From sequence record OZ335958.1: DNA of 64,000 nucleotides; one strand, given 5' to 3'. Shown here piece after piece: positions 33,922 through 36,330 of this stretch (positions within the stretch are counted from its first letter, which is position 1; each line of letters starts with the position of its first letter). Both the position numbers and the translations under genes were made by a program. Source of the stretch: a phage. The notes beneath the pieces were generated by a model. The model saw nothing but the letters and a program-made list of their open reading frames with translations. It was not told the DNA's origin and searched no databases.

Positions 33922-34503
33922 CTAACCGAGCTTTTTAGTTAATTCATTCCAATGTTTTCTACACAAAGAAACATAAATTTCATCACCAATACAGATTTGA
34001 TTACCTTCTTTAACCGGTGTTCCATCTTCCATTAATCGAGCTGTCATAATAGCCTTTTTACCACAATGACAAACTGCCTTTAGTTCAATAAGTTTATCTG
34101 CAATCGCCAAAAGTTCTTTAGAACCTTCAAATAATTTTCCAGCGAAATCAGTCCTTAGTCCATAAGCCATAACAGGAACACTATATGTATCAACAATTCG
34201 GCTTAATTGATGCACCTGTTTAGTTTTTAAAAACTGGGCTTCATCTACAAATACACAATGAATATCTTTTTGTGCTTCAGCCCATTTATAGAACTCAAAA
34301 ATATCCATATCATCCGTAATAATATTCGCTTCCTGCTTAATTCCAATGCGAGAAACGACTTCACAGACAGAATCACGAGTATCAATAGCAGGCTTAAGAA
34401 CTAATACACCCATTCCGCGTTCTTTATAATTATGTGCAGCAGTCAAAAGAGAAGCAGATTTTCCAGCATTCATTGCTGCGTAAGTAAAAATTAAACTCGC
34501 CAT
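33922..34503 (-). CDS. tk: thymidine kinase
   Basis: 193 aa, P-loop AAMNAGKS, C-terminal Zn cysteines; recognised as T4 Tk. Confidence 0.9.
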   Translation of the reverse strand: MASLIFTYAAMNAGKSASLLTAAHNYKERGMGVLVLKPAIDTRDSVCEVVSRIGIKQEANIITDDMDIFEFYKWAEAQKDIHCVFVDEAQFLKTKQVHQLSRIVDTYSVPVMAYGLRTDFAGKLFEGSKELLAIADKLIELKAVCHCGKKAIMTARLMEDGTPVKEGNQICIGDEIYVSLCRKHWNELTKKLG

Positions 34504-34512
34504 ATCACCTTC

Positions 34513-34698
34513 TTAAAGCGTATTCACATAAGCTATTAATTCGTTTTCTTTCTTATCAAACCGATCAGCAAATTCTTCTTGCTGATCGGGAGATAGCGGG
34601 CCGTATTCATCATAAAAGGTGTTTGCTTCTGTATGCTCATCTAGAAGTTCATGGATAAGCTCAAACAATTTATCTTTTTGTTCTTTACTCAGACTCAT
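34513..34698 (-). CDS. hypothetical acidic protein
   Basis: 61-aa ORF. Confidence 0.4.
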   Translation of the reverse strand: MSLSKEQKDKLFELIHELLDEHTEANTFYDEYGPLSPDQQEEFADRFDKKENELIAYVNTL

Positions 34699-34864
34699 AT
34701 ATTAATTTCCAGGAGTTTTAAAATAATTCGCTTTTGCTTAAATATTTCCATAGTTAAATGACCAGTATCTTTTTGACCGATTCCAATGGCAAAACCTTTA
34801 TTGACAGCGAGTTCAATTAAATTATCAAGCTCACGTAACACTTCATATTGTAACTCAAAACTAT

Positions 34865-35077
34865 TCATTTCGGTTTACCTTCTTTAACGAAATCGGGATA
34901 AGGATAAAATCCTGAATAAAATCCTTCACCTTTATGATTGATGCATCCTTTATTAGAACAATAGCACCAATAATCGAAATCACAAGCCATTTCATCATTA
35001 CATAAAGCAAAAACAACTGGCCATTCACACTTTTCGCAGTGGGCATTTTTAAGAATACTTGTTTGGCTCATAACCAT
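34865..35077 (-). CDS. cysteine-rich small protein
   Basis: Track ORF starts at TTG 35092; ATG at 35077; about 10 Cys (CEKCEW..CND..C..CYC..C); 5 prime part lies in duplication copy 1. Confidence 0.45.
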   Translation of the reverse strand: MVMSQTSILKNAHCEKCEWPVVFALCNDEMACDFDYWCYCSNKGCINHKGEGFYSGFYPYPDFVKEGKPK

Positions 35078-35503
35078 GTAACCTTTAAACAATATTCTTC
35101 TACGTGTTGTTTACGACCTTTCTTATCAATAAAGGTATATTCAACGAATGTTCCAATATAGTCTTTATCTACACCATGTGGACTATTAATTGGGCATTTA
35201 GTACGGCAAATGCGTTCCCATTGACGAATAATTTCCACTTTGTTTTTAGTCATTACATAAAGCAAAAACAACTGGCCATTCACACTTTTCGCAGTGGGCA
35301 TTTTTAAGAATACTTGTTTGGCTCATAACCATGTAACCTTTAAACAATATTCTTCTACGTGTTGTTTACGACCTTTCTTATCAATAAAGGTATATTCAAC
35401 GAATGTTCCAATATAGTCTTTATCTACACCATGTGGACTATTAATTGGGCATTTAGTACGGCAAATGCGTTCCCATTGACGAATAATTTCCACTTTGTTT
35501 TTA
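34994..35503. repeat. perfect tandem duplication, 2 x 255 bp
   Basis: 34994..35248 and 35249..35503 are identical on base-by-base reading. Confidence 0.9.
35068..35301 (-). pseudogene. chimeric ORF created by the duplication
   Basis: 77-aa ORF; first 17 aa from the alternate frame of the cysteine-rich gene 5 prime region, remainder identical to residues 12-70 of ORF 35323..35535. Confidence 0.55.
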
Positions 35504-35535
35504 GGATCAAACGGATGCGGGTAATGTACTTTCAT
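35323..35535 (-). CDS. hypothetical protein (intact copy of duplicated gene)
   Basis: 70 aa, MKVHYPHPFDPKNKVEIIRQWERICRTKCPINSPHGVDKDY; ATG start. Confidence 0.5.
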   Translation of the reverse strand: MKVHYPHPFDPKNKVEIIRQWERICRTKCPINSPHGVDKDYIGTFVEYTFIDKKGRKQHVEEYCLKVTWL

Positions 35536-35986
35536 AATCCATCACTATTAAATCAATATCAGGAGTAAACATGTCGATTAATTTAGAAACCTTATCCCAA
35601 TCGCCGCCAGCAATACCGCAACCTATACGTGGAATGTAAATTACTGGTTTAAACAAAAGGGTTTCTGCCTGTAGATTTAATTCTATCATGCAGTTTACTA
35701 AAGCACCATAATCAAGATTAGGACCCGGTTCGTATTGTGTATACAGGTTATAGCATATACCAAATCCCGTAGGGCTATGTTTAAAAACAATAGACATATC
35801 GCCTAATTTATCACGAGAACCGTACTCGGTAGTGGTTTTATCTATTTCTAAAATTTTGGGATAGGCTCTTGCTAATTGACCCGCTACGCCAGAGCCCATT
35901 GTGTGGAAGCAATTGCACCCGTGCGCAATAATATTACCTTGAAGAAATAGGGCGACAATATCGCCCTTGATATATTTTACAATCAT
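35507..35986 (-). CDS. macro-domain protein (ADP-ribose binding/hydrolase family)
   Basis: 159 aa; motifs GDI...QGNIIAHGCNC...GSGVAG...GCGIAGG typical of macro domains. Confidence 0.6.
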   Translation of the reverse strand: MIVKYIKGDIVALFLQGNIIAHGCNCFHTMGSGVAGQLARAYPKILEIDKTTTEYGSRDKLGDMSIVFKHSPTGFGICYNLYTQYEPGPNLDYGALVNCMIELNLQAETLLFKPVIYIPRIGCGIAGGDWDKVSKLIDMFTPDIDLIVMDYESTLPASV

Positions 35987-36330
35987 CTAGTACTCAATCC
36001 TCGATTATAAGAATCTACTAAACGGTCAACCATTGAATGACAAGCGGCTTTATCTTTCTCCTCCGCAACTGAACATTCTAAAGTATTCCACTTTTTAGCA
36101 TATCGTTTTAACAATGTATCATTTTTGTATCTGCTTGATTTATCTCTTTCTCCGTCTTTATATGCATATATTAATTTCTGCGCAAATTCAGCTTGGCATG
36201 CTTTATTTTTCCCACAATAATCCGCGGCAGTACGGTTTACATACTCTCTAATTTCAGTATATGATGTATCTGCTAACGCAGAAGCAGAAAATGAAATTAA
36301 TCCTATACATAAAACCAAAATTTTAGTCAT
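35983..36330 (-). CDS. secreted small protein (vs position)
   Basis: 115 aa with signal peptide MTKILVLCIGLISFSASALA. Confidence 0.45.
   Translation of the reverse strand: MTKILVLCIGLISFSASALADTSYTEIREYVNRTAADYCGKNKACQAEFAQKLIYAYKDGERDKSSRYKNDTLLKRYAKKWNTLECSVAEEKDKAACHSMVDRLVDSYNRGLSTR

Follow-up and report, generated by a model that had tools for sequence, protein, structure and literature searches.

A 64,000-nucleotide stretch of phage DNA (sequence record OZ335958.1; hereafter the window) carries an orthologue of the T4 gene tk.4, and we consider it likely, with a probability of roughly 0.72, that its product is an orphan 'antitoxin-like' enzyme that clears phage single-stranded DNA of the ADP-ribose which DarT2 has added to thymidines. 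This reading combines what the window protein itself shows, namely its fold, class, orthology and invariant residues, with a DarTG2 phenotype that others have described in T4. An anti-defence role has already been reported for the T4 orthologue and the domain call is already present in GenBank annotation; the interest that remains lies in a Gln-type active site, an invariant Asp49 and the replacement of one allele by another.

The window encodes the tk.4 (adfM) orthologue of a Tequatrovirus

The gene, its neighbour vs and the features at its borders lie as follows:

35507..35986, minus strand: tk.4 (adfM) coding sequence, 159 aa, a single macrodomain (from the ORF list, Pfam Macro, PHROG 335 and synteny)
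35983..35986, minus strand: ATGA overlap of 4 nt between the stop codon of vs (TGA) and the start codon of tk.4 (ATG), read from the sequence
35983-36330: vs (valyl-tRNA synthetase modifier), directly upstream of tk.4 and joined to it by the ATGA overlap
35507..35535, minus strand: 29-nt overlap of the tk.4 3' end with the tk.3 5' end (from the ORF ends)
35949-35967, terminator-like on both strands: hairpin with an 8-bp stem and a 3-nt loop (AGGGCGATATTGTCGCCCT), within tk.4 codons 7-13

The ORF begins with ATG and its translation holds KGDIVALF, GNIIAHGCNC, GSGVAG and GCGIAGG. The first-pass annotation had placed a macro-domain ORF with the named motifs at 35507-35986, exactly where we find it, and both the Pfam Macro match and the fold described below agree with that call; the 29-nt overlap that it had described with the start of the duplicated gene is likewise present (35507-35535), and compares with an overlap of only 4 nt between tk.4 and tk.3 in T4.

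A megablast search with the region matched 720 phage records, chiefly Tequatrovirus of Escherichia and Shigella, and identity reached 99.8% in the best of them. In the close relative vB_SsoM_113 the gene order, in T4-style names, is tk, tk.2, two small ORFs, tk.3, tk.4, vs, vs.1 and regB; the window ORF falls in the tk.4 slot of this order, and the tk.4 gene of T4 occupies the same slot. The window protein aligns with T4 Tk.4 (NP_049723) over 155/155 aa without a gap (57% identity, E 3e-70) and matches PHROG 335 with an E value of 5.7e-71. Homology thus extends over the full length and the gene lies on the same strand between tk.3 and vs, as in the T4 Tk.4/AdfM orthologous group: it is the tk.4/adfM orthologue of a Tequatrovirus. 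Proteins 99.4% identical to it are already annotated as 'macro domain protein' or 'phosphatase', and the T4 tk.4 entry bears the note 'contains A1pp phosphatase motif'. The Tk.4 family is large and common, with a homologue found by tblastn in 2784 of 50,697 phage records from many host genera, and with 18,100 cluster representatives recovered at E <=0.001 (1,147 at E <=1e-30) in an exhaustive profile search.

The ATGA junction between vs and tk.4 is the same in T4 and vB_SsoM_113 and, as read from the sequence, has the layout usual for translational coupling. A promoter and terminator scan of the region gave 21 promoter-like sites, no excess over the 27.8 expected from shuffled sequence, and we therefore limit any claim of a transcription unit to the ATGA junction with vs, itself the T4 gene depleted most strongly in minimal medium (bioRxiv 10.1101/2025.11.20.689424). 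The hairpin at 35949-35967 is identical in T4, despite the divergence of the remaining tk.4.

Tk.4 is a free-standing macrodomain of the TARG1/DarG/ALC1-like class

The window protein matches Pfam Macro (PF01661) with 32 bits against a gathering cut-off of 22, over profile positions 2-117 of 118. An AlphaFold2 model of it (pLDDT 92.9, pTM 0.88) has the three-layer alpha/beta/alpha architecture and mixed central sheet of the macro fold, with predicted disorder confined to the last five residues (155-159, pLDDT <50), and this fold is nearer to TARG1, DarG, BT1257 and Poa1p than to MacroD-type or PARG-type macrodomains. When a profile of 60 Tk.4 sequences was compared with the PDB, the E values were 1.5e-18 for BT1257, 2.9e-16 for TARG1, 7.8e-15 for SCO6735 and 9.7e-15 for Poa1p, and 2.4e-11 and 2.6e-9 for the macrodomains of DarG. 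Taken together, these data identify Tk.4 as a free-standing macrodomain of the TARG1/DarG/ALC1-like class.

DarG was the sole PADLOC model matched by Tk.4, weakly and over positions 3-144 of 329. It was also the best NCBIfam match (NF048014), again a weak one (the others had E values of 0.01 and 0.17), at 27.7 bits over positions 2-143 of 338, far below the equivalog cut-off of 250. Only the N-terminal macro part of the DarG HMM is matched, and the 159-aa protein has no counterpart of the DarT-binding C-terminal domain. Nor is there a darT next to tk.4, whose neighbours are vs and tk.3. For a bacterial homologue from Pelagimonas (P0093), the Pfam hits on record include no DarT-like protein beside it, so that capture of the phage gene from a DarTG2 operon finds no support in this case.

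The predicted active site has a Gln in place of the catalytic Lys

Residue conservation was assessed across 259 sequences, made up of the window protein, 120 word-index matches and 138 further cluster representatives. H22, G23, N25, C26, G33, A35, D49, G62, N80, Y82, Q84, P119, G122, G124 and W130 are essentially invariant in this set, and the elements of the putative active site map to the window as follows:

35912..35914, minus strand: codon of Asn25, in the HGCNC motif (Asn in 257/257 sequences with a residue there, of 259 aligned)
35879..35896, minus strand: loop 1, GSGVAG, residues 31-36, the first Gly-rich ADP-ribose-binding loop, which aligns with MGAGIA of TARG1
35840-35842, minus strand: codon of Asp49 (Asp in 259/259 family members)
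35735..35737, minus strand: codon of Gln84, in the NLYTQ motif at the end of strand 74-84 (Gln in 258/259)
35603..35623, minus strand: loop 2, GCGIAGG, residues 122-128, the second Gly-rich (diphosphate) loop, which aligns with GCGLDRL of TARG1

Both Gly-rich loops are conserved, with Gly at position 33 in 258/259 sequences, Ala at position 35 in 259/259, and Gly at positions 122 and 124 in 257/259. The equivalents of Asn25 in DarG (N22) and PhiKZ AdfM (N23) have been given as active-site residues (PMC13309987).

In both the 60-sequence profile and a MAFFT alignment with PDB-derived sequences, Q84 stands opposite K84 of TARG1, without a gap, and opposite the Gln of the 'NMIGQ' motif of BT1257, and Ala126 occupies the position of TARG1 Asp125. 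Pairwise phmmer alignments with PDB chains were set aside, as they put the BT1257 Gln opposite Cys78 and did not usably align the catalytic strand. The corresponding Gln of SCO6735 is chain position 105 of 5e3b, which becomes native position 85 if the N-terminal tag is assumed to be 20 residues long; with the same assumption, Val25 of the SCO6735 paper falls on a Val at chain position 45. A structure-based alignment places SCO6735 Gln85 at the position of DarG Lys80 and TARG1 Lys84, the Q85A substitution abolishes activity, and SCO6735, DarG and TARG1 all reverse thymidine ADP-ribosylation by DarT (PMC9411070).

To accommodate its longer mobile loop, BT1257 has to be given 6 inserted residues against the Tk.4 profile; TARG1 needs no gap there. 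Judged from these alignments, Tk.4 unites a SCO6735-type Gln with loop lengths of the DarG/TARG1 type. The presence of an invariant Q84 for the catalytic Lys, unaccompanied by the longer mobile loop, appears to be new, as does a family of this kind that is without a DarT-binding domain. At the position of the invariant Asp49, BT1257, SCO6735 and PhiKZ gp104 have an aligned Tyr and TARG1 a Leu.

A diverged tk.4 allele in a T4-like backbone

The window was aligned with T4 using MAFFT, after removal of one copy of a duplication, and identity was computed per 100-nt window. The features around tk.4 are:

35538..35925, no strand: divergence island covering the body of tk.4 (45-72% nucleotide identity to T4)
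34995-35249 and 35250-35504: perfect 255-nt tandem duplication
35323-35535, minus strand: intact tk.3, in the duplication region
35246-35347: truncated copy of an RB32ORF111c-like gene, in the duplication region
35068-35301: chimeric second tk.3, in the duplication region
34865-35092: intact ORF111c-like gene left by the duplication, one of two RB32-type small ORFs between tk and tk.3, Cys-rich (CEKC...C..C.C....C)

At this resolution identity to T4 is 95-100% in tk, rI, vs, vs.1 and regB, and 92% in the first ~60 nt of tk.4. With the body of tk.4 diverged and its flanks near-identical, the window holds a different tk.4 allele in a T4-like backbone. The window-type allele is found, at >=90% protein identity, in ~313 phage records; as a sharply diverged tk.4 within 95-100% identical flanks it appears, from these comparisons, to be new. 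Its divergence may stem from the mosaicism that is ordinary in accessory regions of T-even phages, or from selection for differing specificities. A bolder proposal is that the Tk.4 family may be a third mechanistic type in the TARG1/DarG class (Gln, short loop, Asp49), and that sharply diverged alleles may have entered the near-identical T-even backbones by recombination for differing substrate range, giving the window allele a specificity absent from T4 AdfM. We think this unlikely; if true, the alleles might differ, for instance, in the DarT2 clades they counter or in acting on marks of other nucleic-acid ADP-ribosyltransferases.

Between tk and tk.3 (34500-35091) the sequence is replaced relative to T4, with 24-48% identity per 100 nt and many gaps, and in place of the T4 pair tk.1 and tk.2 the window has tk.2 and two small ORFs of the RB32 type. 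The tandem duplication stops 2 nt before the tk.4 stop codon is reached; the tk.4 frame is untouched. For a query spanning the duplication junction, each of the full-length matches listed fell into two parts, and only one copy of the 255 nt is present in vB_SsoM_113; the duplication could be a recent event or an assembly artefact.

Tk.4 as a probable eraser of DarT2 marks

Others have passed a library of T4 transposon mutants through a host that expresses DarTG2 and scored one gene as significant, tk.4, the sole T4 gene required for DarTG2 resistance. Its clean deletion made T4 sensitive to DarTG2, and the gene was named adfM, for anti-DarT factor Macrodomain (bioRxiv 10.1101/2025.11.20.689424). 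The same preprint states that enzymatic removal of ADP-ribose from DNA 'seems likely', reporting genetics and no biochemistry (bioRxiv 10.1101/2025.11.20.689424), and we found no biochemistry on any Tk.4 protein in the literature. The phenotype fits the resistance left in an adfA/adfN double mutant of T4, since phage lacking both adfA and adfN (gene 30.3) stayed DarTG2-resistant (PMC11825919). In addition, PhiKZ gp104, also named AdfM, de-ADP-ribosylates T-ADPr oligonucleotides, and its mutants lose DarTG2 resistance (PMC13309987). Given the T4 tk.4 phenotype and the activity of gp104, an anti-DarTG2 eraser is the best explanation for the window gene.

The window allele, 57% identical to T4 Tk.4, would accordingly be expected to do the same job, probably by enzymatic reversal rather than by toxin binding, and with catalysis running through the invariant Gln84 in the manner of SCO6735 instead of through a DarG-type Lys; for Gln catalysis of the SCO6735 type, an activated water molecule has been proposed (PMC9411070). 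In such a scheme, host DarTG2 releases the DarT2 toxin, which attaches ADP-ribose to thymidines of single-stranded phage DNA and so blocks replication; the two Gly-rich loops of Tk.4 would bind the ADP-ribose, and the enzyme would hydrolyse the thymidine-ribose bond, making the template usable again. The gene would then represent a phage's stripped-down version of the enzyme domain of a bacterial antitoxin, undoing an immune mark at the level of DNA, and, with AdfA and the NADAR enzyme AdfN, which acts against DarTG1, would suggest that T-even phages meet a single defence family with several counter-measures. For the window, the practical value is a function-level name, adfM/tk.4, in place of 'phosphatase' or 'hypothetical protein', and the Gln-for-Lys active site and the allele replacement offer small leads on how such erasers work and diversify.

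Some observations weigh against assigning this role to the window gene. Its allele differs from T4 Tk.4 at 43% of positions, and other anti-DarT factors, AdfA and AdfB, have both active and inactive alleles (PMC11481870). Tk.4 is also without the longer mobile loop that the SCO6735 authors tied to high DNA activity. The protein has neither the catalytic Lys of DarG nor the TARG1 Lys/Asp dyad, and the lack of the DarG Lys could also point to neutralisation of DarT2 mainly without catalysis, through binding of the toxin or through binding and shielding of ADP-ribosylated DNA. This mode has precedents, in that the catalytically dead SCO6735 Q85A still inhibits DarT in vitro (PMC9411070) and the ICP1 factor AdfB is thought to act by direct interaction (PMC11481870). 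We nevertheless regard it as very improbable for Tk.4, which is without the C-terminal DarT-binding domain of DarG (HMM match 2-145 of ~330) and which keeps N25, Q84 and both Gly loops near-absolutely in 259 diverse sequences, as in an enzyme; more variation would be expected in a protein that binds one variable toxin.

A different substrate would leave catalysis in place. Yeast Poa1p, a small-molecule phosphatase, is as close to Tk.4 structurally as DarG is, and, with the historical 'phosphatase / A1pp' annotation, this would suit a hydrolase of small molecules, an ADP-ribose-1''-phosphate phosphatase (Poa1p-like) or O-acetyl-ADP-ribose deacetylase that tidies NAD-derived metabolites during infection. 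We consider such a role very improbable: the phosphatase and deacetylase names were transferred by homology, TARG1-class enzymes commonly show such activities in vitro as side activities and not as their role, we know of no source of ADP-ribose-1''-phosphate in T4 infection, and DarTG2 sensitivity is the only phenotype known for the T4 orthologue. Somewhat less remote, though still improbable, is that Tk.4 reverses ADP-ribosylation of protein or RNA, whether the marks of phage Alt/ModA/ModB or those of host transferases such as the mRNA-modifying CmdT. T-even phages do encode ADP-ribosyltransferases, which counts in favour of this; the Alt/Mod enzymes modify arginine, however, and we know of no macrodomain of the Tk.4 class that cleaves the arginine-ADP-ribose linkage. 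TARG1 and SCO6735 act on protein substrates besides DNA (PMC9411070), and RNA ADP-ribosylation defences against T-even phages exist (PMC11618068). CmdTAC, though, defends robustly against T-even phages despite tk.4 (PMC11618068), which argues that Tk.4 does not neutralise CmdTAC, and the T4 screen tied tk.4 specifically to DarTG2 (bioRxiv 10.1101/2025.11.20.689424).

The first-pass annotation had suggested an eraser of ADP-ribose marks laid down by defence systems, or of NAD-derived signals, and had pointed to the transferases of the phage itself. Its first suggestion stands for ADP-ribosylation of DNA, by virtue of the DarTG2 genetics of T4 tk.4; NAD-derived signals and erasure of the phage's own Alt/Mod marks gained no support. 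With nothing to support either, reversal of Alt/ModA/ModB marks and degradation of NAD-derived signals were rejected.

Comparison with known systems

The DarG macrodomain of DarTG2 (PDB 5M3I, 5M3E) has a catalytic Lys80 (T. aquaticus, M. tuberculosis) where Tk.4 has Gln84, and DarG possesses a C-terminal DarT-binding domain and an adjoining darT, whereas Tk.4 has neither. Human TARG1/OARD1 (PDB 4J5S) shares its subclass and loop lengths with Tk.4, and its catalytic strand and loop align gap-free, but its Lys84/Asp125 dyad is replaced by Gln84/Ala126. The best PDB matches of Tk.4 in both sequence and fold are SCO6735 and BT1257 (PDB 5E3B, 2FG1, 2AFC), which like Tk.4 are stand-alone single domains with an N-x-x-x-Q motif and a loop 2 of the form G-C-G-[IL]-A-G-G that is without the Asp. 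This subclass differs from Tk.4 in a mobile loop that is ~5-6 residues longer, in an identity of 27-29%, and in Asp49, which is invariant in the Tk.4 family and not found in SCO6735 or BT1257.

PhiKZ gp104, the AdfM of a chimallivirus, is, like Tk.4, a phage-encoded stand-alone macrodomain that counters DarTG2 (PMC13309987). The two are ~21% identical (hhalign probability 96%), and gp104 lacks the HGCNC and NxYTQ motifs of Tk.4. It has a DarG-like Lys, K78 ('FPTK'), which sequence-only alignments place one to two residues off Q84, so that the equivalence rests on published structure-based alignments. Unlike Tk.4, gp104 is imported into a phage nucleus (PMC13309987), a structure that T4-like phages do not have. 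The name AdfM has been given independently to these two proteins, T4 Tk.4 with its Gln and PhiKZ gp104 with its Lys78.

The closest counterpart is T4 Tk.4 itself, the AdfM of 155 aa, which agrees with the 159-aa window protein in genomic slot, in the junction with vs and in all family-invariant residues; the two differ in loop 2, which reads GCGIAGG in the window and GAGIGKG in T4, and in the C-terminus, which is 4 aa longer in the window protein.
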